64,000 bases of DNA from a virus, in IMG/VR virus record IMGVR_UViG_2921643360_000001, positions 1 through 64,000 of that record; one strand, 5' to 3'. Shown in pieces: positions 481 to 59,472 of this stretch. Below the pieces are notes generated by a model. That model was given only the letters and a program-made list of their open reading frames with translations, was not told the DNA's origin and made no database searches. Positions within the stretch are counted from its first letter, which is position 1; each line of letters opens with the position of its first letter. The position numbers and the translations under genes were made by a program.

Positions 481-1554
481 TCAGCGCGTCGGGCCCACTT
501 TTTCACCTCGGCGCTTCCGAACATAGTGCTCGGTCATGGTAACGGATTCGTGCCCAAGCTGCTTCTGTGCTTCTCGAATGTCGCCCGATGAATCCGCCTT
601 GTCTGTCGCCGCTTTCGCGCGCAAATCGCGTAACTGAAACGAGTTGTCGTCCTTGATGCCCGCCGCCCTTCGGGCGTTCTTGAAGCGCATCTGCATCGCG
701 TTCAGGGTCATCCGTTGGCCCTTCTCGTTGACCACCAGCGCTGTGCTCACGACCTTGTACGACGCCTTGCGGGCTTTGATCCGCTCGATGGCCGTTTTCA
801 GTTCTCCAGCGATCTCCATGCGAATTTTCTTGCCAGTCTTGCCCTGGTCGATCAGAAGGAACCCGTCGCGGATATCTCGCTCGTCAAAATTCAGCGTGTC
901 CTGCGGGCGCTGGCCGGCCAGGTAAGCCAAGTCCATAAAATCCTTGGTCGGCTGGTCGGCCTTCTCATACACGCGCGCAAACAGGTCATCTTCAACGTAG
1001 ACGTCGCGCCCTTCCACCGTGTTCCTCTTGACACCCGTACACGGGTTGGCCGCCTTAGTCAGACCAACTGCGCGAGCCTTGTTGAATATATGGCTGAACA
1101 GCGAGAGTTCCCTGTTAGCGCGCGCATGACCGGCGTTAGGTGGGGCTGCCCTCCCCTTGCTGGCGAACCACTTGACAGACTTCTCATAGCGCCAGCGCAG
1201 ATATGCACTGACATGCATCGGCTCGATCTCGTCGAGGGGTGTGTCGTCTTCGAAGTATTCTTTGAGATTCGCCAACTCCTCCAAGTTGTCTGACTGAGTT
1301 CGCGGCTTCTTGCGGGGCAATTCCTCCCGCAGATAGACGGTCACGGCGTCCCGAAATGTGCTCCCGGCATCTTTCGGCGTATCGGCCTGCTCGATCTCAG
1401 CCCAGCGCGTGACGGCCTTCCGGTAGTCCGTCCCAAGCGACTCCTCGCGTCGAGGTTTGCCGCCGTGGTCGTAGTAATAGTAGATCGTCTCGCCGCGGTG
1501 ACGGGCGCGCATCCCTGGCGGCAAATGAGTGTTGCGCGTCGGCTTCCTGCCCAT
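481..1554 (-). CDS. int: Tyrosine recombinase / phage integrase
   Basis: 357 aa. The C-terminus 'FQLRDLRAKAAT...LGHESVTMTEHYV' fits the R..H-x-x-R..Y catalytic region. It is the terminal gene of the prophage. Confidence 0.9.
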   Translation of the reverse strand: MGRKPTRNTHLPPGMRARHRGETIYYYYDHGGKPRREESLGTDYRKAVTRWAEIEQADTPKDAGSTFRDAVTVYLREELPRKKPRTQSDNLEELANLKEYFEDDTPLDEIEPMHVSAYLRWRYEKSVKWFASKGRAAPPNAGHARANRELSLFSHIFNKARAVGLTKAANPCTGVKRNTVEGRDVYVEDDLFARVYEKADQPTKDFMDLAYLAGQRPQDTLNFDERDIRDGFLLIDQGKTGKKIRMEIAGELKTAIERIKARKASYKVVSTALVVNEKGQRMTLNAMQMRFKNARRAAGIKDDNSFQLRDLRAKAATDKADSSGDIREAQKQLGHESVTMTEHYVRKRRGEKVGPTR

Positions 1555-12127: not shown

Positions 12128-12910
12128 TCAGGTGCTGCGATACATGCCGGATCCGCGCGGCACGATGGCGCCTACACGATGGATAGACACGATATCGGCC
12201 AGCGACCTCGTGATTGGAGGAATGCCATTGTTGATCGAACCAAGGCTGACTTCCTCATCACGGATCCACAACAATTCTTTGACGACAGCGCTGCCGTCGA
12301 CAAACTTGACCACCACATCATCACCCGGAAGAGCTTCGACGCCGGGTTCCACAACGATGTGTTCGCCACTCTTTATGCGCGGCCTCATGCTATCGCCGCG
12401 CACCTTCAAACCATAGGCCGTTGGGTCTGGTGAATGGATGTTGAGCCATCCATGGCCGTGACCTGGCGGATAGTCGTCGATACTGATAAACCCATCCGGC
12501 CCACCCTGCACTTCCCCGACCACGGCTATATCCCTCCCAGCCTTTAGTTCCAATCGCTCGCCAACGTTTGCTTCTGCTCGTGGCAGGCCTTCGATACTAG
12601 CCCCACCTTTCGGGACCGAAGGCGCAATCATGCCTGACTTTTGCCGGTTCTTCGAGATATCAGTGTCCGCTGAAATGTGGTTGCCGGTGACGCCCAAATC
12701 GAAGTAGAGAGTCGGCAAGCCAAGTTCGGACTCGAGTCGCCGCGCAGCTCCTTCGCCGAACCCGCGTCCCTCCCGATAGTTCGGGTTCAGCAGTTGTCGG
12801 ATCCGAGCCGCATCCTGGTTGTGCAGTCGAGCGAATTCAGCGGCGACCCCTCCCGCCTCCCTGTCCACTAGTTCCTGTAGCCGCTTACGGCGGTGCGCAT
12901 GTATGTCCAT
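12128..12910 (-). CDS. CI-like repressor with LexA/S24 peptidase C-terminal domain
   Basis: Start at ATG 12910 (MDIHAHRRK). The C-terminus 'GLKVRGDSMRPRIKSGEHIVVEP...VVKEL' is the S24 Ser/Lys autocleavage fold. Transcribed divergently from the cro-like gene. Confidence 0.85.
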   Translation of the reverse strand: MDIHAHRRKRLQELVDREAGGVAAEFARLHNQDAARIRQLLNPNYREGRGFGEGAARRLESELGLPTLYFDLGVTGNHISADTDISKNRQKSGMIAPSVPKGGASIEGLPRAEANVGERLELKAGRDIAVVGEVQGGPDGFISIDDYPPGHGHGWLNIHSPDPTAYGLKVRGDSMRPRIKSGEHIVVEPGVEALPGDDVVVKFVDGSAVVKELLWIRDEEVSLGSINNGIPPITRSLADIVSIHRVGAIVPRGSGMYRST

Positions 12911-12932
12911 GGCGGAATTAGAACCGAAAACT

Positions 12933-13002
12933 AGCATTTGCTGTGAAAGCAGAATTTATCATTTCAGCACGCAAATGCTTGCGTTTAGCGGAAGCATTTG
13001 CT
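12933..13002. promoter_or_regulatory. OR operators: three copies of AGCATTTGCT / its complement
   Basis: Sites at 12933..12942, 12970..12979 (complement, 9/10) and 12993..13002, in the 103-bp divergent intergenic region. Confidence 0.7.
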
Positions 13003-52060: not shown

Positions 52061-53704
52061 ATGGACCGTGTGATTACGTATGTAGGGATGAGCGTATACG
52101 AATGGCTCTTTTCTAAACAAGCGCAAAGCTCGATGGTCGGGCTCTCGAAGCTGTCGGCCGCCATGTTCGGTTCGAATACCGTGGCCAATGGTCTTTCCTG
52201 CGTACCGACCGGCCCCGCTTCGCTGCAAGTCGTCATCAACCCCGGCGAAATCTACTCGTTCGCCAACCTCGAGAACAGCGTCTGCGGAACGCTGCCGACT
52301 GATTCTCACAGCATCATGAAGCAAGGCGTCCTGCTGGATGCTTTTACGACGACTGCTGGTGCGCTTCCCGCGCCAGGCACGGCTGGACAGTCGGTGAACT
52401 ATCTCATCGAAGCCCAGTACGCAGATTCAGACGTCTCGGTCGATCCGACGACGGGCAGCGCGCCTGTCGTGCTTCAGTTCTATAACTCTTCGAATCCCGG
52501 CTCGCCTTGGAGCGGTCCTGGCGGCCTCGGCGGCACGAGCAACACGTTCCGTAAGGGCGTTGTGTCGCTCCAGATCAAGGCAGGTGCCGCGGCAACGACG
52601 GGCAGCCAGACGACGCCCTCACCTGATGCTGGCTGGACTGGGCTGTGGGTCGTGACGGTCGCCAATGGGCAGACACAGATCCTCGCGGGCAACATCACGC
52701 AATACGCAGGCGCGCCAATCCTGCCGTCGTCGATTCTTTCGTCGATCCAAAGCGGAAATATGTCGTATGCGGTCGCAACCGGGTCGGCTAACGCTCACAC
52801 GATCGCCTTGACGCCGGCTCTCACGTCGCGCGTCGACGGCATGATGATCCGCTACAAGGCTCCTGCCGCCAACACGACAGCCGTGACGCTGAACGATGGC
52901 GTCGGAACGGCCAACGTTCTCGGCGCGAACCACGCGGCACTCCAGGGCGGCGAATACATCACCAACGGTGACGCCATTGTCGTCTGGAATAGCTCGATCA
53001 GCGGCGGTTCGTACATCCTCATCGAATGCACTGGCGGCGCCCTCCAAATCCCCCCCGCCACTCAGAGCCAGCATGCTGTGCAGTTGGGGCAGGTGCAGCA
53101 GAACTATGCGTGGAATGGCGGGTTCCAGGCCGTTAGCGCAACCGGGAACTTTACAGTTCCGGCCGGCGTTTATAGATTGCGTTACCGCGTATGGGGTGGC
53201 GGTGGCGGCTCAGGCGGATGTGGGTCGACTGGCCAGACAGCAGGGGGCGCTGGCGGTGGCGGCTACTCCGAGGGAGTCGCTAGCGTAACTCCTGGTCAAA
53301 CTGTGTCATGCACTATTGGAGCAGCAGGTACCGCCGGGGGGGCAGGTGGCTCCGGTGGTACAGGCGGCACTACGTCGTTCACTGCAGGCGCTTTGACGGT
53401 TTCCGCTACCGGCGGGTCTGGAAGTTCAAACGGCATAGGGTCTGGCGGGAATGGAGCAGCCGGTGGCACCGGATCTGGTGGGCAAAACAACCTGACTGGT
53501 GCCGGCGGCTGCTCGGGTTCGGGCTCGACGGGCGGCCCTGGGGGCATGGGTGGTTCGGCCCCCCAAGGCGGTGGCGGTGGCGGTGGCGCAACTGGGACCG
53601 CCCAGTCCGGGCAGACGCCTGGCGGCGGCGCAGGAGGGCCTGGTGCGGCTGGAGCCAACCCGGGCGCCATTGGCGGAGCTGGTCGCATTGTTTTTGAATG
53701 GTGA
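52061..53704 (+). CDS. Tail fibre protein with C-terminal glycine-rich domain
   Basis: 547 aa after the baseplate. C-terminal 'WGGGGGSGGCGSTGQTAGGAGGGGYSEG...GAGRIVFEW'. Confidence 0.7.
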   Translation: MDRVITYVGMSVYEWLFSKQAQSSMVGLSKLSAAMFGSNTVANGLSCVPTGPASLQVVINPGEIYSFANLENSVCGTLPTDSHSIMKQGVLLDAFTTTAGALPAPGTAGQSVNYLIEAQYADSDVSVDPTTGSAPVVLQFYNSSNPGSPWSGPGGLGGTSNTFRKGVVSLQIKAGAAATTGSQTTPSPDAGWTGLWVVTVANGQTQILAGNITQYAGAPILPSSILSSIQSGNMSYAVATGSANAHTIALTPALTSRVDGMMIRYKAPAANTTAVTLNDGVGTANVLGANHAALQGGEYITNGDAIVVWNSSISGGSYILIECTGGALQIPPATQSQHAVQLGQVQQNYAWNGGFQAVSATGNFTVPAGVYRLRYRVWGGGGGSGGCGSTGQTAGGAGGGGYSEGVASVTPGQTVSCTIGAAGTAGGAGGSGGTGGTTSFTAGALTVSATGGSGSSNGIGSGGNGAAGGTGSGGQNNLTGAGGCSGSGSTGGPGGMGGSAPQGGGGGGGATGTAQSGQTPGGGAGGPGAAGANPGAIGGAGRIVFEW

Positions 53705-53928: not shown

Positions 53929-55242
53929 ATGCTTATTTCGAAAATCGGCGGGGCGGTAAATAAGGTAGCGATGTCGGTCAAGCATCGCGTCGTCGGGCGG
54001 GCGATCTCTACGCTAGAGAAACCTCATCAGGCAGTTCCCGATGTCGCGATTCCCGATGTTCCCGAGACGGATGAGTCTGTTCTCGCTCGATCCGAGTCTA
54101 TTATTTCCCGGGCAATTTCTGCTGGCCGATCTGGCAAGCTGACCGTTGTTCCTGAGATGATCTCCGTCGCGGCCACGGAAAACTGCAATCTTAAGTGTGT
54201 TATGTGCCCAGGTCATGCGGGTATGAGCGGTCCGAAACTCTCAGTCAATGAGGCCGAAATGCTATTCGCCTCGCTCGCTGTTGAAGGCCCGCATTTTGGG
54301 TCGCCGAAGATCCTAGACATGACATCTGGTGAGCCCACGCTCAACCCCGACCTAGGGCCAATTTACGGCCGATTCAAAGAACTTTTCCCCGATTCGAAGA
54401 TTTCGATGATAAGCAACGGGACGATCCCCGTTCGCGGTCGAACCCGTGAAGCATTCGAACATGCTGACCGCATCGGTCTTTCGATGGACGGCGCGACGCA
54501 GGAGACGTATGAGCGGATCCGTCAAGGGTCGATATGGAAGAACGTCATTCGCAATGTGATGGACGTTGCTGAAATCAAGAAGTTGGGTGAGAACTGCGAG
54601 ACGTTGCAGATCATGATGGTTGTTATGGACCAGAATATCCATGAACTACCTGAAATGATCCGCCTCGCACATTCCCTTGGAATTCCGCAAGTGTTCGCGC
54701 AGGTTTCTGAGATTCGTACTACCCCCTTCAATATCGCAGGGCAGAACGTTTCGCTTACTCTCTCAAAGGAAAAACTCGCCCCTATAGTACACGAGGCGAA
54801 GCAGGAGGCTCAGCGACTCGGCTTGGATTTGACTCTTACGGCGCATCTGGAAAATTCACTCGTTCCGGATGAGCCAAAGCAACCAGCGACTGCTCAGATG
54901 ACACATGACGAGCGCGCGTTGAGTGTCGCGATTCGAACGTGTAATGTGCCGTGGATGCATGCACCGCGCATTTCGCAAAATCACGATGGGATCTACCCCA
55001 CAACGGTTTGCTGCCATATGCCGAATGTCCATGGCGCTGGCAATTTGGCACGCCGGGAGGAGTTCCGCGGGAAGTCGATCAACGAAATCTTCAACTCGCC
55101 ATACTATTGGGAAATTCGGGCTGGGTTGATGGATGGATCGCTTGCCAATGATGCATGCAAGGGTTGCCAGTATCACCAGATGACGCAGTGGACGGCCACC
55201 CAATTGCGCGAATTGGAAGAGGCCGTCGATGCATCAGTTTGA
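53929..55242 (+). CDS. Radical SAM enzyme with SPASM/twitch-like Cys-rich C-terminus
   Basis: 'ENCNLKCVMCPG' (CxxxCxxC), 'SGEPTLNP' and 'SNGT'. C-terminal Cys pattern CNVPW..VCCH..ACKGC. Visibly lower GC than the flanks. Confidence 0.8.
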   Translation: MLISKIGGAVNKVAMSVKHRVVGRAISTLEKPHQAVPDVAIPDVPETDESVLARSESIISRAISAGRSGKLTVVPEMISVAATENCNLKCVMCPGHAGMSGPKLSVNEAEMLFASLAVEGPHFGSPKILDMTSGEPTLNPDLGPIYGRFKELFPDSKISMISNGTIPVRGRTREAFEHADRIGLSMDGATQETYERIRQGSIWKNVIRNVMDVAEIKKLGENCETLQIMMVVMDQNIHELPEMIRLAHSLGIPQVFAQVSEIRTTPFNIAGQNVSLTLSKEKLAPIVHEAKQEAQRLGLDLTLTAHLENSLVPDEPKQPATAQMTHDERALSVAIRTCNVPWMHAPRISQNHDGIYPTTVCCHMPNVHGAGNLARREEFRGKSINEIFNSPYYWEIRAGLMDGSLANDACKGCQYHQMTQWTATQLRELEEAVDASV

Positions 55243-55605
55243 TTGATTCAGGGACGGGGATAACGACGGCGCCTCGCCACATTCGTTTTCGGCTAGTCCC
55301 TGCTCGTCTACAGGTCGGTCAGGAAAGCTCATAGGCGCTCGCATTCCGATCAGTGCCGTGAGTTTTCCGAAGAAGGACCGCTTGTGCGTCTCCAGTCCGA
55401 ACTCTCGTGCGCTTCGCTGGAAGTTGTCGACCTCCCCGGAGCAGAAGCAGGCGACATACCGGTAGGTCTCTCGTCGTCGATTCAGAAGGGCGAAATACGC
55501 ATAGACAGGCTGATCGAATTTCTTGATCTCTCCCACCTGTAAGCGCTCAACAAATGCTTTGTCCTGCTCCGGCATGTGCCGCGTAGTCAAAAGTATCGTC
55601 TGCAC
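55234..55605 (-). CDS. 123-aa hypothetical protein (GTG start, strong SD GGAGG)
   Basis: Converges on, and overlaps by 9 nt, the radical-SAM 3' end. No motif recognised. Confidence 0.55.
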   Translation of the reverse strand: MQTILLTTRHMPEQDKAFVERLQVGEIKKFDQPVYAYFALLNRRRETYRYVACFCSGEVDNFQRSAREFGLETHKRSFFGKLTALIGMRAPMSFPDRPVDEQGLAENECGEAPSLSPSLNQSN

Positions 55606-55706
55606 TTCGATCCTCCGTCTCTGGGTTATTTAGGATCGCGCTGAATGTTCAGGGGATTGCGTTGTTTTTCAATTCGTTACCCCTGTAACGACCGCCGATA
55701 ATACAC

Positions 55707-56504
55707 CTAAAATTTTATTTTCAGCTCCAGCGCATCGGCATCATTCCACAGTGGCGGAATTTCGCGCTTGTTGCTGTTGATGCTCATGAAGTAATGCCTG
55801 TAGCTCAAGGTGAGGCGACCGTTTCCTACGGACAGCCCAGCAACGGGCGCGACGGACCAGTAGGCATCGGAAACGCTGATGTCCTGTGCCGTCTGCGTTG
55901 GCCACGCCTTCCACCCGGCGACGTGCTCGGACCACGAGTCACGATGCACATAGGCGCCGACTTCTGCGCCGACGCGGACGCCGTAGACCCAGTAGTACGG
56001 CTCAAGCGTCAGCGCGACACCTTGTGATCGTCCTTCGCCCGTGAAATACGCCTGCGGTACGTCAACCTTACGCGTGTAAGAGTGCGACGATGGGTCGTAA
56101 TTCGCGTCATTCGGCGTGCATGAGCAGTCGGCTGCAGCGCGACCAAGATTGACGTATTCGGCGTGCCAGTCGACGCCCCATTTGCCGCGAGTGATGAGCG
56201 GACCAGTGAAGCCAGCAGAGAAAGCCGGCGGCTTGCTCGTCAGCTTTGAGCCGCCCGGAATGCCCTCCTGGTACCAGCGACCATCGGTCGTGGTGTACTT
56301 GGCCGCGCCAATGCCCAATTCGACCTGAACGTAATCGTTGATGTAATCAGCATGCGCCGACGCAGCGGCACAGCCCAAACTCATCGCAACAGCCGCCGCA
56401 CGCCACCGCGACCCAACGCGGCGATTCGTGCGTGAAGCCGTAACCTGTTGGCGCGGAACTCGGCGACCGCGTGAAGCCTGAACCACCCGATTTTGCGTGT
56501 GCAT
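55707..56504 (-). CDS. Outer-membrane beta-barrel protein (Lom/Ail-like moron)
   Basis: Signal peptide '..AAVAMSLGCAAASAHA|DY', alternating aromatic beta-strands and a C-terminal '...LELKIKF'. Confidence 0.7.
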   Translation of the reverse strand: MHTQNRVVQASRGRRVPRQQVTASRTNRRVGSRWRAAAVAMSLGCAAASAHADYINDYVQVELGIGAAKYTTTDGRWYQEGIPGGSKLTSKPPAFSAGFTGPLITRGKWGVDWHAEYVNLGRAAADCSCTPNDANYDPSSHSYTRKVDVPQAYFTGEGRSQGVALTLEPYYWVYGVRVGAEVGAYVHRDSWSEHVAGWKAWPTQTAQDISVSDAYWSVAPVAGLSVGNGRLTLSYRHYFMSINSNKREIPPLWNDADALELKIKF

Positions 56505-56506
56505 TT

Positions 56507-57187
56507 TTATTCTCCGAGCGCAACTGTCAAATTAGCTGCGTGATTTGCTGTCCAGACGGTTGCGAAAGCTTGCAGCGATGCTTTGCGCTCGTCATAGTCC
56601 TTGCCCAAGCCGATCATTACGGCGTTGCGCTCTTCCAGTCTTGCCAGAAGATCGAGCGCAGTCGTTGACAGGCTGTCGCGCTCAAGAGATTGAAACTTGC
56701 CTGATGCGGCCCAGTTGACCAGCCGCGCCTCATTGGAAAAATGATGCGGAGCGCATGTCTTGCCGATGGCCTCGCGGCTCAATTGCACAATCTGCGACAT
56801 GACCTTGTATGACGCTGCGGCTTCGTGGCGAAGACGTTTCTGGTCAAAGTGCGGATGCTGGCGTGTGATGAGCGCACGAATTTGCCGATCGCACCAGATA
56901 GCGAAGCGCACGTCCAGCCATCGGGCGAATCCAACCGCAAGATCGGGATGAAGCCAAGTTCCGCCGCTCTTGCCGCGCAAGGTGCGAATCCAATTACCAG
57001 ATTCTCCGGTATTTAAGGATTCATCCAAGGCAGCGATGTATTCCTGTGTGGCAGGAAGGGCGAGCCAGTCATTCGGACGCTTGCCGAATTGCGAGGCGAT
57101 GGCTGTCGCATTGAACCAACCTTCGTCAGTAAATGAGACGGCCACGCCTTGGTAGTCTGCGACGATGATTTGCTGTTTGGGGGCCAT
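56507..57187 (-). CDS. KilA-N domain protein
   Basis: 'VSFTDEGWFNATAIASQFGKRPNDWLALPATQEYI...GTWLHPDLAVGFARWLDVRFAIWCD' matches KilA-N. Confidence 0.75.
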   Translation of the reverse strand: MAPKQQIIVADYQGVAVSFTDEGWFNATAIASQFGKRPNDWLALPATQEYIAALDESLNTGESGNWIRTLRGKSGGTWLHPDLAVGFARWLDVRFAIWCDRQIRALITRQHPHFDQKRLRHEAAASYKVMSQIVQLSREAIGKTCAPHHFSNEARLVNWAASGKFQSLERDSLSTTALDLLARLEERNAVMIGLGKDYDERKASLQAFATVWTANHAANLTVALGE

Positions 57188-57212
57188 TACCGCGCTCCCA
57201 TGCTGAATGATG

Positions 57213-57493
57213 CTACTGCGTGTCTTCTCCAGCGGCCTCCGACATGTCCATCGTGGCGCCGACTTTGCGCATTTCGTCGATCACGGCTTCGATATCCCGC
57301 TGCTTGAGCACGAGTTTCGCCATAGCGAAAAACAGCATTTGCGCGCTGATCTTCCTCGGCTCCTTCCCGCCCGTATATTTCCTGAATTGCTTGTCGTCCG
57401 ATACACCGAACAACTCGGCCATCTGGGAGCCGGTATATCCAAGCCGCGCCTTGAGTCGCGCTAGGTCTTCTGGGGTCGGTGCTTCGTAGCGCA
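57213..57493 (-). CDS. XRE-like HTH regulator
   Basis: 'GYTGSQMAELFGVSDDKQFRKYTGG'. ATG at 57493 is preferred over the TTG at 57509. Confidence 0.6.
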
Positions 57494-57595
57494 TTGAGGA
57501 ATCGTCCAAGGCTGCGCGAAAAATCGCGAAATGTTCTTCTCATGATTCTTCCTTTCGGAGTTGTCGGGTTGCCGGATGGCCGCCCTGTGATTGGA

Positions 57596-57625
57596 AGTAT
57601 CAGCCCCGAAGGGGGCATTTGTCAA
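57596..57625 (-). promoter_or_regulatory. Sigma70-like promoter (TTGACA-18-GATACT) for the HTH/KilA-N/OMP operon
   Basis: Read from the minus strand. The spacer contains the hairpin GCCCC-ttc-GGGGC. Confidence 0.5.
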
Positions 57626-57649
57626 CAACTAAATTCGACCAACCAACCT

Positions 57650-57676
57650 GCCCGCCACGAGCGGGCTTTCTGCTTT
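57650..57676 (+). terminator. Terminator-like hairpin upstream of the lysis genes
   Basis: GCCCGC-cacga-GCGGGC followed by TTTCTGCTTT. No plus-strand gene lies directly upstream. Confidence 0.4.
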
Positions 57677-57691
57677 AACGGGGCTTACTGA

Positions 57692-57976
57692 ATGGACAAC
57701 ACGGTCCTCTACATTGGCGGCGCTGTAGCTGGCGCTATCGGCACGGTTGCCTGGTGGGCTGTTCGTGCGATGCACGCGCGCATCAACGAGAACGCTAAAG
57801 ACCTCTCCGACTACAAGCTCTACGCGGAAAAGCGTTTCGTGACATCCGACGAACTGACGAAGGCCATCGGAAATCTCGAAGGATCAATCGAGCGCCTGAT
57901 TGAATCAGTCGATACCAACGCCAAGGAAATGCGCGAGTGGTTCCGGCTGCTCCAGCAGACGAAGGCAGATAAGTAA
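57692..57976 (+). CDS. Membrane-anchored coiled-coil protein (holin-position gene)
   Basis: N-terminal TM 'VLYIGGAVAGAIGTVAWWAV'. Lies directly upstream of the endolysin. Confidence 0.45.
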   Translation: MDNTVLYIGGAVAGAIGTVAWWAVRAMHARINENAKDLSDYKLYAEKRFVTSDELTKAIGNLEGSIERLIESVDTNAKEMREWFRLLQQTKADK

Positions 57977-58014
57977 CCGCTTTATCCCCTGCAACACCGC
58001 TCTAAGGTATAGCC

Positions 58015-58629
58015 ATGCAACTCACAGCACAGATTGTCGCGTCAGGGTGTGGCTCAGCGCTTCTTCGGGCGGCGCAGTGGGTCGCCCCGCTCCAATCCGC
58101 CTGCGACCGCTACCACATCGACACGCCTCTGCGCGTCGCGGCCTTCCTGTCGCAGATCGGCGTCGAGTCTGCCCGCCTCACCGCCCTCGTCGAAAACCTG
58201 AATTACTCGGCAGAGGGTTTGCTCGCAACCTTCCCGAAGTACTTCAACGCAGTGCAGGCGGCGCAGTACGAGCGACAGCCGCAGCGCATCGCGAATCACG
58301 TCTACGCGAATCGGTACGGCAATGGTGACGAGGCGAGCGGAGATGGATTTCGATTTCGCGGCAGAGCGTTGCTCCAGATAACCTTTAGAGACAACTATGC
58401 CTCATGCGGTAAGGCGATTGCGCTGCCTCTCGACTCACATCCTGAGTTGCTTGAGCAACCATGCAATGCGGCGCTCGCGGCTGGCTGGTATTGGGACTCG
58501 CGCAACCTTAACCCGCTGGCCGATGCCGGTCGATTCGAGGGCATCACGCGCGCTATCAACGGCGGGCTCGCAGCGTATTCCGAACGCCTCGCTCTCTATA
58601 GCGCTGCAAAGAAGTCACTCGGTATCTGA
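58015..58629 (+). CDS. Endolysin, glycoside hydrolase family 19 (chitinase-like)
   Basis: 'FLSQIGVESARL...NLNYSAEGL...YANRYGNGDEASGDGFRFRGRALLQITFRDNY...INGG' matches GH19 endolysins. Confidence 0.85.
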   Translation: MQLTAQIVASGCGSALLRAAQWVAPLQSACDRYHIDTPLRVAAFLSQIGVESARLTALVENLNYSAEGLLATFPKYFNAVQAAQYERQPQRIANHVYANRYGNGDEASGDGFRFRGRALLQITFRDNYASCGKAIALPLDSHPELLEQPCNAALAAGWYWDSRNLNPLADAGRFEGITRAINGGLAAYSERLALYSAAKKSLGI

Positions 58630-58803: not shown

Positions 58804-59472
58804 ATGGCTATCCGCAAGTATATCGCATCTGGCGAAATCCTCCATGGTTGGGTCTACGTCCGAGAGGGCGTGGATCGCGGCAGGACTCGGCACATCTTCG
58901 CAATGTGCCCCTCATGCAAAAACGAAGTCGAAGTAAATGCGACTGAGGTGCGGACTGGAAAAAAGAAAATGTGCCGTCCATGTGCCGACAAATTCAACGG
59001 GGCGAGATGCCTGGTTCATGCAGAAAAGTGGGCGACGCACAGGATGTCAGGTTCGACAACTTACGAATCATGGCGGTCTATGATGAAGCGTTGCTACTTA
59101 GAAAGTGCAACGTTCTATCAATACTACGGCGGAAAAGGGGTCAAAGTTTGCGACCGTTGGCGGGATTCGTTCGCCAATTTCTTTGCTGATATGGGAGAGC
59201 GCCCTGAAGGCATGACCTTGGACAGATACCCCGACAAGAACGGTGACTACGCGCCGGGTAACTGCAGATGGGCAACGCCAACGGAACAGATTCGCAACAG
59301 AAATACCACGGTGTATATTGAGTTCCGGGGGTTGCGCAAAACGATGAAGGAATGGGCGGATGAAATTGGTGTCGCCTACAAGACATTACGCGCAAGGATA
59401 GTTGACCAAGGATGGCCAATAGACCGCGCACTTACTACGCCGCTGCGGATCCACAGAAAGCACGTCCCATAA
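58804..59472 (+). CDS. HNH-like (degenerate HNH_3-type) endonuclease paralog 3
   Basis: 'YQYYGGKGVKVCDRW..FANFFADMGERPEGMTLDRYPDKNGDYAPGNCRWATPTEQIRN'. N-terminal CPSC..CRPC. Confidence 0.65.
   Translation: MAIRKYIASGEILHGWVYVREGVDRGRTRHIFAMCPSCKNEVEVNATEVRTGKKKMCRPCADKFNGARCLVHAEKWATHRMSGSTTYESWRSMMKRCYLESATFYQYYGGKGVKVCDRWRDSFANFFADMGERPEGMTLDRYPDKNGDYAPGNCRWATPTEQIRNRNTTVYIEFRGLRKTMKEWADEIGVAYKTLRARIVDQGWPIDRALTTPLRIHRKHVP

Follow-up and report, generated by a model that had tools for sequence, protein, structure and literature searches.

In a Paraburkholderia steynii prophage, four minus-strand genes lie between the tail-fibre and radical-SAM genes on one side and the lysis genes on the other, which raises the question of whether they form one inherited unit, how they are controlled and what they might do for a lysogen. 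The preliminary description of this DNA had read them as a reverse operon of a helix-turn-helix (HTH) gene, a KilA-N gene, an outer-membrane beta-barrel gene and a 123-aa ORF that serves surface remodelling or exclusion and might be coupled to the convergent radical-SAM gene. Every cassette element that it named was found in the window, i.e., the complete 64,000-nt stretch that was analysed. Here, we propose that the region is a self-repressing accessory cassette with an HTH gene nested in a longer leader ORF, a swapped-in KilA-N gene, an exported barrel and an orphan gene, and that its overlap with the radical-SAM gene is incidental. Taken as a whole, we regard this explanation as probable.

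Genomic setting and transcriptional control

Across the prophage, the order is integrase (481..1554), S24 repressor (12128..12937), tail fibre, cassette, holin-like gene and GH19 endolysin. Within the cassette, the HTH and KilA-N genes are separated by 25 nt, the KilA-N and barrel genes by 2 nt, and the barrel gene and the 123-aa ORF by 101 nt. In our reading, a temperate P. steynii prophage here carries an autonomous cassette of accessory genes that is transcribed against the late genes. Morons, as defined by Hendrix, are autonomous transcription units added to a phage genome. The cassette has a predicted promoter of its own, and its cargo varies among loci that have their flanking fibre and GH19 lysis genes in common. 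No convincing factor-independent terminator was found on the minus strand past position 55234, where weak matches occurred only within the radical-SAM gene, and GC content (0.55-0.59) did not deviate from that of the flanks (0.53-0.63). The previously drawn parallel to lambda lom is justified, as a reverse-oriented autonomous accessory cassette adjoins the tail-fibre genes at a comparable position. Seen simply as a moron cassette that encodes an outer-membrane barrel, the locus is unremarkable. A terminator-like hairpin with a T-run (57650..57676, plus strand) is located 16 nt upstream of the holin-like gene (57692) and is kept, with differing stem sequences, in the related loci L016, L001 and L012.

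For comparison, 88 loci were fetched; promoter analysis covered 51 distinct relatives and frame analysis 57 distinct HTH genes. The sigma-70-type promoter on the minus strand (57596..57625; -35 TTGACA at 57625..57620, 18-nt spacer, -10 GATACT at 57601..57596) is present where the preliminary description had placed it, with a 10/12 match and the top score in the region. As a bare pattern it was not significant (4 sites found vs 2.3 ± 1.6 expected in shuffles), but the promoter call was regained because TTGAC of the -35 element is conserved in 49 of the 51 relatives at a fixed distance of 81-90 nt from the first start codon. Inside the promoter spacer lies the inverted repeat GCCCC-cttc-GGGGC (57603..57616). 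Perfect inverted repeats of at least 5 bp occur in the spacers of 28 of the 51 relatives, as compared to 6.8% of shuffled spacers, and their arms covary (GCCCC/GGGGC, CACCC/GGGTG, GTACCC/GGGTAC, GGACC/GGTCC, GGCGG/CCGCC). This palindrome is likely the operator of the XRE-like HTH protein.

The HTH gene (57213..57494, minus strand; PHROG 20491, E = 2.7e-27) had been recognized before with its start, at 57493, placed one base short. Profile matches of its 93-aa product were all below curated cut-offs and included Xre-like-HTH in 15 of 21 members (best E = 0.0058), HTH_31 in 8 of 21, the MqsA HTH (E = 0.0017), and AcrIF24, Aca3 and Pli0006 (E = 0.07-1). The structural model comprises five predicted helices at low confidence (pLDDT 60); the top 50 Foldseek matches of this weak model were all XRE-type HTH proteins (E = 0.08-0.9), and C.Esp1396I, Aca1 and HigA2 are among its structural neighbours. 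Variation in the HTH frame is concentrated at the third codon position, far above the first and second, which shows purifying selection. The protein is probably an XRE-type HTH and a probable autorepressor of the cassette. Transcription would start at the conserved promoter, the HTH protein would act on the spacer palindrome, and by virtue of this operator position the cassette would repress itself. A small XRE-type HTH gene within the operon and a palindrome inside the promoter, to which the HTH protein is predicted to bind, are also features of Aca-controlled anti-CRISPR operons and C-protein-controlled restriction-modification systems. Unlike in these systems, the HTH gene comes first here and is nested out of frame in the cargo leader, which to our knowledge is not known for either of them.

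The leader frame is conserved across relatives

A fifth ORF that was absent from the preliminary description encodes an Arg-rich leader of 118 aa (57187..57543, minus strand). Its ATG, preceded by a conserved Shine-Dalgarno sequence (SD, GGAAG), lies 49 nt ahead of the one that starts the HTH gene. The ORF spans that gene entirely, in the +2 frame, and ends on the KilA-N start codon, with which its stop overlaps as TAATG. No domain was found in the 118-aa product. Off-frame ORFs are common at 58% GC, and the locus might simply be an ordinary four-gene moron operon in which GC-rich composition and common descent, rather than translation, account for the frame that overlaps the HTH gene. This would suit a product that is Arg-rich, of low complexity and poorly conserved (pairwise identity 34% vs 55%), and in the window just 118 aa long. 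The window copy is a shortened form of the leader, the openness of which alone has P ~0.1. The same value per gene was obtained from a synonymous-shuffle null for an open +2 frame, which gives an expectation of 5-6 open frames among the 57 distinct HTH genes, whereas 55 are open; the +1 frame is open in six. Hidden stops, i.e., NNT followed by AA, AG or GA, numbered 4 vs 135 expected, as compared to 221 vs 277 and 3265 vs 4412 in controls. This approximately 30-fold depletion of stop-forming dicodons is confined to the region of HTH overlap. When clustered at 70% amino-acid identity, the 55 open sequences form at least 12 groups, and they differ from each other at ~0.46 per third-position site, which argues against shared ancestry as the cause. 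Relatives keep an SD with ATG or GTG at 37-49 nt before the HTH start; the frame of this start codon never varies, and the product begins with MKxxFRA.

In 38-39 relatives, the leader frame is fused to a signal peptide and secreted cargo. The signal-peptide core at these loci begins ahead of the HTH stop, and 33 of 38 fused loci have no alternative start (ATG, GTG, TTG) within 40 codons of it. A GDSL domain was confirmed in fused ORFs, and the barrel is the fusion partner at 10 loci; unfused leader ORFs often have a stop that overlaps the following start codon. Both frames are thus open and selected across independent lineages, and we consider a mere compositional by-product quite unlikely. 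The pattern points to an outer frame that is constrained mainly toward openness rather than sequence, and the leader product may matter solely as a translated spacer. The arrangement of an HTH gene inside a longer frame, kept in ~55 related prophages, appears not to have been described previously.

The strong SD-ATG of the leader would be the first start on the mRNA, and we infer that it is translated. In most relatives the leader ORF runs directly into a signal peptide and an SGNH/GDSL lipoprotein or barrel, so that the precursor would bear ~105 Arg-rich residues before the signal peptide, and the repressor would be made from the internal, out-of-frame start. It is tempting to go further and propose that these Burkholderiaceae prophage cassettes follow an undescribed design, in which the start of the cargo lies upstream of the repressor gene, translation proceeds straight through that gene in another frame and the extension stays in the cytoplasm; we put the chance of this somewhat short of even. 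Repressor and cargo would then share DNA, compete for ribosomes on one mRNA and be inseparable by recombination. Once signal peptidase has cut, the extension could stay anchored to the membrane on its cytoplasmic side and have a function of its own, and the window would represent a derived form with the leader ORF coupled to KilA-N. Selected long out-of-frame overlaps are rare in bacteria and phages, and this one offers ~55 natural variants together with a clear null model. It also poses a question for protein export: by what route are precursors of lipoproteins and outer-membrane proteins targeted and processed if a positively charged extension of ~105 residues precedes the signal peptide? 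A cytoplasmic extension of this length before a cleavable signal peptide is unusual. Gene callers annotate either the HTH gene or the long ORF, never both, which flags an annotation problem.

Lambda Rz/Rz1 is a nested out-of-frame gene pair of a phage. The present pair resembles it: on the same strand, one gene lies completely within the other but is read in a different frame, and neither seems dispensable. It differs in that the embedded gene encodes a transcription regulator, the outer ORF provides the pre-signal extension of a secreted cargo, and the ~280-nt overlap extends over the complete regulator gene. The extended signal peptide regions (ESPR) of proteobacterial autotransporters and two-partner secretion proteins likewise place a long, positively charged N-terminal stretch before an otherwise normal signal peptide. 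However, the motif differs, the extensions described here (37 aa in the barrel of the window, ~105 aa in first-position cargo) are far longer than the ESPR, and they precede both SPase I and lipoprotein-type signals. No Pfam family, ESPR (PF13018) included, matched the N-terminal regions of the leader ORFs or of the barrel precursor.

KilA-N gene, outer-membrane barrel and variable cargo

The preliminary identification of the 226-aa KilA-N protein (56507..57187, minus strand; PHROG 1136 and 129) was confirmed by a match to Pfam PF04383 (E = 3e-21; 75.7 bits vs a cut-off of 23.8) that aligns residues 11-107 with profile positions 4-105 of 107. The 3' junction of the gene is common to the GDSL genes of relatives. 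In the window, the KilA-N gene has taken the place of an SGNH lipoprotein cargo, and the leader ORF is cut to its present length. Because the leader stop overlaps its ATG, KilA-N is probably translated by coupling.

The expectation that the four genes are inherited together was not borne out among the related prophages, in which only the HTH and barrel genes recur together. Among the 88 loci fetched, KilA-N follows the HTH gene in only one other lineage (L016/L017), and the sole other setting of the 123-aa ORF is with the barrel gene beside an integrase gene, where HTH and KilA-N are absent (L004-L007). We take HTH plus barrel to be the recurrent core. The earlier proposal of a surface or exclusion cassette is therefore upheld in part: in relatives this position is occupied by genes for envelope modification (SGNH/GDSL lipoprotein, acyltransferase_3, methyltransferases) and the promoter is kept, whereas the four-gene unit and the link to the radical-SAM gene did not hold.

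The barrel precursor (265 aa; 55707..56504, minus strand) agrees with its earlier characterization as a beta-barrel with signal peptide; it ends in LKIKF. Its AlphaFold2 model is an antiparallel barrel of eight strands with a mean pLDDT of 85.5 and block means of 85-98 over residues 61-265, and matches OmpA, NspA, OmpW, Ail and OmpX. A 37-aa Arg-rich extension precedes the signal-peptide core, cleavage is predicted at AHA|DY, and the C-terminal residue is Phe; the antiparallel barrel, N-terminal signal peptide and C-terminal aromatic residue are those of the 8-stranded fold class. Membership in Ail/Lom (PF06316) or OMP_b-brl was not indicated by any Pfam, PHROG or NCBIfam match at E up to 0.1 or 0.01. 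The protein thus models as an 8-stranded outer-membrane barrel of a separate, uncharacterised family, which is confined to Burkholderiaceae and soil metagenomes. It would be translated from its own SD-ATG with the 37-aa pre-signal extension and exported to the outer membrane. Small outer-membrane barrel genes with their own promoter also adjoin tail-fibre genes of temperate phages in lambda lom/bor and the Ail/Lom/OmpX morons. Unlike these, the barrel described here has no family-level sequence match, a larger mature protein (~213 aa) and a long Arg-rich pre-signal extension, and is transcribed against the late genes.

An alternative is that the barrel acts on LPS as an outer-membrane enzyme in the manner of PagL or PagP, together with the SGNH, acyltransferase or methyltransferase genes that neighbour it in relatives. 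We consider this unlikely, since the PagL score is no different from what 8-stranded barrels in general reach (NspA 16.7, OmpW 15.1, OprF 14.8), neither the PagL nor the PagP family was matched by sequence, and conserved polar residues alternate with aromatics on the modelled strands, which suggests that they face the lumen as in OmpA. Judging from fold and context, the barrel most likely alters the lysogen surface, with exclusion of other phages or host fitness as the outcome.

A related possibility is that the cassette chiefly serves anti-phage defence or superinfection exclusion, with KilA-N and the 123-aa protein as effectors and the barrel blocking adsorption. Residues 67-210 of KilA-N match the PADLOC candidate PDC-S22 (profile positions 100-258 of 281, E = 1.5e-10), the locus is a hotspot of variable cargo, and acyltransferase_3 and SGNH genes, typically associated with O-antigen modification (OafA-type systems), occur in relatives. 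However, PDC-S22 is itself a predicted candidate, so that the match says nothing on function, and the HTH protein, barrel and 123-aa ORF had no PADLOC match. We regard a chiefly defensive role as a tentative reading; it is compatible with, and not exclusive of, the self-repressing accessory cassette.

The 123-aa ORF and its overlap with the radical-SAM gene

As described before, the 123-aa ORF (55234..55605, minus strand) starts with GTG, with GGAGG 6 nt upstream, and overlaps the convergent radical-SAM gene (53929..55242, plus strand; Pfam Radical_SAM, E = 1.5e-14) by exactly 9 nt. Only one homolog was found among 1.84 billion cluster representatives. Substitutions relative to L004 are distributed 16/15/57 over the three codon positions (pN 0.16, pS 0.79), and we take this orphan to be a real cargo gene under purifying selection. 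Together with the uncharacterised barrel family, it extends the list of prophage accessory genes.

The preliminary description had suggested that the convergent overlap ties the two units together as a regulatory device, through antisense RNA or transcriptional interference. The two units do overlap and have no terminator between them, so that convergent transcription would physically collide. However, the conserved core of the 123-aa protein stops ~28 residues before its end, and the overlap sits in the remaining tail, which differs in the only homolog; in that homolog the overlap, of 71 nt, is with another gene, one for tail-fibre assembly. L054 carries the only further radical-SAM homolog (71% identical), and there the gene converges on the cassette at a distance of ~80 nt, with neither an overlap nor a 123-aa ORF. 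The proposed coupling is thus not supported by conservation, and we consider a regulatory device very improbable. The 9-nt overlap is better read as incidental, a by-product of the non-conserved C-terminal tail. The radical-SAM gene belongs to the neighbouring tail-fibre module, outside the cassette, and in L016 its position is occupied by an acyltransferase gene.

Overlapping reading frames at the HTH gene

The most interesting content of the region is an apparent dual-coding leader that the preliminary description had not seen. Alignment of upstream regions revealed a conserved GAAAGGAAG followed by an ATG, placed 49 nt 5' of the HTH start codon. This ATG (57543) opens a 118-aa ORF (57187..57543, minus strand) that runs in the +2 frame through the whole HTH gene (57213..57494, minus strand) and ends in TAATG, the ATG of which is the start codon of the KilA-N gene. 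At the related loci L001 and L012, the long ORF continues into a GDSL lipoprotein gene and is annotated so by gene callers. At these two loci, L008 and others, public annotation lists the HTH gene or the long ORF that spans it, and in no case both.

The +2 frame is free of stop codons in 55 of 57 distinct HTH genes, as compared to six for the +1 frame and 14, three and seven for the antisense frames. Synonymous shuffling gave a probability of 0.09-0.10 for an open frame, so that five to six of the 57 would be expected open. The sole dicodons that create stops in the +2 frame (NNT followed by AA, AG or GA) were found four times in the HTH region versus 135 expected; the controls gave 221 versus 277 for the cargo part of the same ORFs and 3265 versus 4412 for all long ORFs. 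Shared ancestry cannot explain the open frame, because the 55 sequences with an open frame split into 33 clusters at 80% and 12 at 70% amino-acid identity, and third positions of the HTH genes differ at 0.46 per site in pairs of 70-85% identity.

The leader ORF starts with ATG or GTG at a distance of 37-49 nt 5' of the HTH start, always 1 mod 3 from it, and its start codon is preceded by a GGAAG, GGAAC or GGAC motif; MKxxFRA forms the N-terminus of the peptide. The long ORF has about 105 arginine-rich residues before it reads into a signal peptide. This signal is of the lipobox type (..CLAAC|GG) in 29 loci, where it precedes a GDSL/SGNH domain, which exceeds the Pfam cut-off in L001, L048 and L052, and of the ..AAASAHA| type in 10 loci, where it precedes the barrel. 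In these fused loci the hydrophobic core of the signal peptide begins 5' of the HTH stop codon, and 33 of 38 have no ATG, GTG or TTG within 40 codons upstream of the core. The upstream ATG is thus the only start available to the fused cargo. Short leader ORFs often have a stop that overlaps the next ATG, as TAATG in the window and L016 and as ATGnnTAA or ATGnnTGA in seven others, which is the classical layout of translational coupling. These sequence patterns suggest that the leader ORF is translated.

Both frames are not constrained alike. Close pairs differ in the HTH frame by 0.068, 0.046 and 0.235 per site at codon positions 1, 2 and 3, as under normal purifying selection, and pairwise identity is 55% in the HTH frame versus 34% in the outer frame. 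The better conservation of the HTH frame argues that the regulator is the sequence-constrained gene, and that the outer frame is constrained mainly to remain open and basic. Known arrangements of a related kind are nested phage genes such as Rz/Rz1, and extended signal peptides. The literature searched contained no case of a complete regulator gene that lies out of frame within the translated leader of the cargo it belongs to, where the pre-signal extension has about 105 residues, which is absence of evidence only.

Promoter, putative operators and the probable HTH protein

The best sigma-70-like site of the region, TTGACA and GATACT separated by 18 nt (57625..57596, minus strand), is the promoter proposed in the preliminary description. 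As a pattern match it does not exceed chance (4 sites versus 2.3 +/- 1.6 expected). We aligned the upstream regions of five loci, whose HTH proteins are down to 31% identical, and then surveyed 51 distinct regions: TTGAC is kept in 49 of these, 81-90 nt from the first start codon, and is followed by a -10 element of the form xAxxxT. The promoter spacer holds a palindrome whose arms vary by clade and remain complementary, with GCCCC/GGGGC in the window and CACCC/GGGTG, GTACCC/GGGTAC, GGACC/GGTCC and GGCGG/CCGCC elsewhere. In 28 of the 51 regions the arms match perfectly over 5 bp or more, as compared to 6.8% of shuffled spacers. An operator that occludes RNA polymerase and evolves together with a dimeric HTH protein would be expected to show such a pattern.

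The 93-aa product of the HTH gene is probably an XRE-type HTH protein. It matches PHROG 20491, a family without annotated function, and its matches to Xre-like-HTH, HTH_31, MqsA, AcrIF24 and Aca3 are all sub-threshold. Its structural model is weak (pLDDT 60) and has five helices; in Foldseek, every one of its 50 closest neighbours is an XRE-type HTH protein. The protein would repress the promoter of its own cassette, a putatively autoregulated design similar to that of Aca and C-protein operons.

Two further short GC palindromes, conserved in relatives, lie within 57500..57590 (minus strand). The first, of the GGCC..GGC or CGCGCA..TGCGCG type, is located just 3' of the -10 element; the second, CGCG-N5-CGCG, falls in codons 5-10 of the leader ORF, where it specifies FRA..(F)RA. 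RNAalifold predicted no meaningful conserved RNA structure for the 5' region of 31 relatives (-2.6 kcal/mol), which leaves these palindromes unsupported as RNA hairpins, and Rfam yielded no RNA family match in 54800..58100. The palindromes could be further operator sites.

Variable cargo and the predicted outer-membrane barrel

We collected 88 related loci for comparison of the cassette. A genome scan with the barrel profile and a single peptide pattern found three loci; the HTH profile, used on metagenome and viral data, yielded far more. Gene content differs among the loci. L001 carries HTH, GDSL lipoprotein, barrel and acyltransferase_3 genes and L002 barrel and acyltransferase_3; L008-L011 combine GDSL, barrel and a 238-aa gene, L012-L014 HTH, GDSL, barrel and a methyltransferase, and L015 HTH, barrel and methyltransferase. 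In L016 and L017, HTH, KilA-N and barrel genes converge on acyltransferase_3. These varying neighbours indicate a variable-cargo locus with HTH and barrel as recurrent core. All elements of the preliminary description were found, except that the HTH gene, which is present, starts at 57494 and not at 57493. Its reading as an accessory cassette stands; the proposed co-occurrence of the four genes as a conserved unit does not, as a KilA-N gene 3' of the HTH gene recurs only in L016 and L017 and the 123-aa gene only in L004-L007.

The KilA-N identity is solid (56507..57187, minus strand; Pfam, 75.7 bits). The C-terminal part of the protein (residues 67-210) matches the PADLOC candidate PDC-S22 (E = 1.5e-10), which would fit a defence role and proves nothing. 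Its last codons, ..ALGE and the stop, together with the junction to the barrel gene (GCGCTCGGAGAATAA..ATGCACACGC, 56507..56530, minus strand), are the end of the GDSL genes in L001, L012 and L025. This common 3' end argues that KilA-N precisely replaced the body of an SGNH lipoprotein gene. The leader ORF of the window ends in ..GGRWRRHAVASFSMGAR before its stop, which reads as a disrupted version of the ..G(S/A)RWRAAAVA.. signal-peptide entry of relatives, and after the replacement it would have remained coupled to KilA-N.

The 265-aa barrel protein (55707..56504, minus strand) has no family match in Pfam, PHROGs, NCBIfam or PADLOC and is a member of a 72-protein set drawn from Paraburkholderia genomes and soil metagenomes. 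An AlphaFold2 model built from 43 of these sequences is confident (pLDDT 85.5; block means of 85-98 for residues 61-265). Homologs have ordinary signal peptides with an AHA end and a nearly invariant C-terminal phenylalanine. On inspection we rejected a Tat signal, as about 25 residues separate the twin arginines from the hydrophobic core, and a lipobox, as SLGC does not fit and homologs have plain AHA cleavage sites. A promoter-like site just 5' of the barrel ATG (56530..56503) was also dismissed, its TTGACA being unconserved at the L001, L012 and L025 junctions.

In the window the barrel gene occupies the second position and has its own SD-ATG and an arginine-rich extension (37 aa; MHTQNRVVQASRGRR..GSRWRAAAV). 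The same extension stands before the window's barrel family, a distant barrel family (P0070, P0071) and a GDSL lipoprotein (P0072), in the manner of a portable leader or recombination linker. Its presence before three unrelated cargoes indicates that long basic pre-signal extensions are a property of the cassette family and not merely a side effect of the overlap. Within 56385..56504 (minus strand), this extension of about 40 aa, with the pattern MHTQNRVVQ.SR.RR...GSRWRAAAV, is 70-80% identical before the three mature proteins (P0002-P0005, P0070-P0072). Start calls for the barrel are inconsistent; NCBI begins BZM27_06130 at Met41, within the signal peptide.

The location of the barrel gene is constant among the 88 loci, apart from exceptions in other mobile contexts: it lies on the other strand from the tail-fibre genes and diverges from the holin and GH19 genes. 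One homolog adjoins an integrase (L004) and another resides in a P4-like-looking integrase-primase island of Caballeronia (L003), which indicates that the barrel family moves among different kinds of mobile elements. The latter homolog (L003 7947..8630, Caballeronia sp. LZ035) is part of a small integrative element that also carries integrase and primase/helicase-like genes and adjoins host rpe/gph genes.

The lom gene of lambda is likewise an outer-membrane barrel moron beside tail-fibre genes, and the cassette is a new member of this familiar class. Its barrel, however, does not belong to Ail/Lom by sequence, and the cassette lacks two marks of a classical moron, a terminator and an atypical GC content. 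The barrel would be exported and expressed in the lysogen, and its position and its neighbours in relatives point to envelope remodelling or exclusion of other phages. Together, the SGNH and acyltransferase_3 proteins of relatives presumably resemble a split OafA-type O-acetylation system.

The 123-aa ORF, the radical-SAM gene and the prophage

The 123-aa ORF (55234..55605, minus strand) has no match in Pfam, PHROGs, NCBIfam or PADLOC. A word-indexed search found one homolog, P0074 (69% identity), and an exhaustive HMMER search of 1.84 billion cluster representatives with the 123-aa alignment returned nothing beyond it. Substitutions in the first 95 codons number 16, 15 and 57 at codon positions 1, 2 and 3 (pN 0.16, pS 0.79), and omega exceeds 2 in both shifted frames; these values mark the ORF as a real gene that evolves under purifying selection. 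The two proteins are conserved up to ..MRAPMSFP and unrelated over the final 28 residues, which contain the part encoded in the overlap with the radical-SAM gene. In L004 the homologous gene lies 3' of the barrel gene beside the integrase, and its tail extends 71 nt into a tail-fibre assembly gene.

The 9-nt overlap with the radical-SAM gene was confirmed; the regulatory coupling proposed from it was not supported, as the overlap falls in the unconserved tail and the radical-SAM gene of L054, the only one of the 88 loci in which it recurs, converges on the barrel gene at a distance of about 80 nt without overlap. We consider the overlap incidental. The radical-SAM/SPASM-like gene (53929..55242, plus strand) lies immediately 3' of the gene for a glycine-rich tail fibre (Gly_rich_2, 52061..53704), and its 71%-identical copy occupies the same position in a Paraburkholderia sp. 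SOS3 prophage (L054 5020..6318). Viperin was rejected as its identity, given 39 bits versus a cut-off of 180 in NCBIfam and weak pVip/viperin scores. The product might serve to modify the tail fibre or a peptide.

The window is essentially a single temperate prophage, with an integrase (481..1554), an S24 (CI/LexA-type) repressor (12128..12937, minus strand), an ERF recombinase, and helicases and structural genes on the plus strand. Its barrel and 123-aa proteins are identical to BZM27_06130 and BZM27_06125 of Paraburkholderia steynii. A DNA search against phage records matched the endolysin alone (66-67% identity) and found no close sequenced phage relative. Upstream of the cassette, on the plus strand, follow a holin-like gene (57692..57976), the GH19 endolysin (58015..58629) and, directly after it, an HNH homing-type endonuclease (58804..59472; PHROG 3377, E = 4e-52). 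A GC hairpin with a T-run (57650..57676, plus strand) is situated 16 nt 5' of the holin-like gene, and its position is kept in L016, L001 and L012 with differing stem sequences. It looks like a terminator guarding the lysis genes against transcription coming across the cassette, in which case late transcription would need antitermination to get past.
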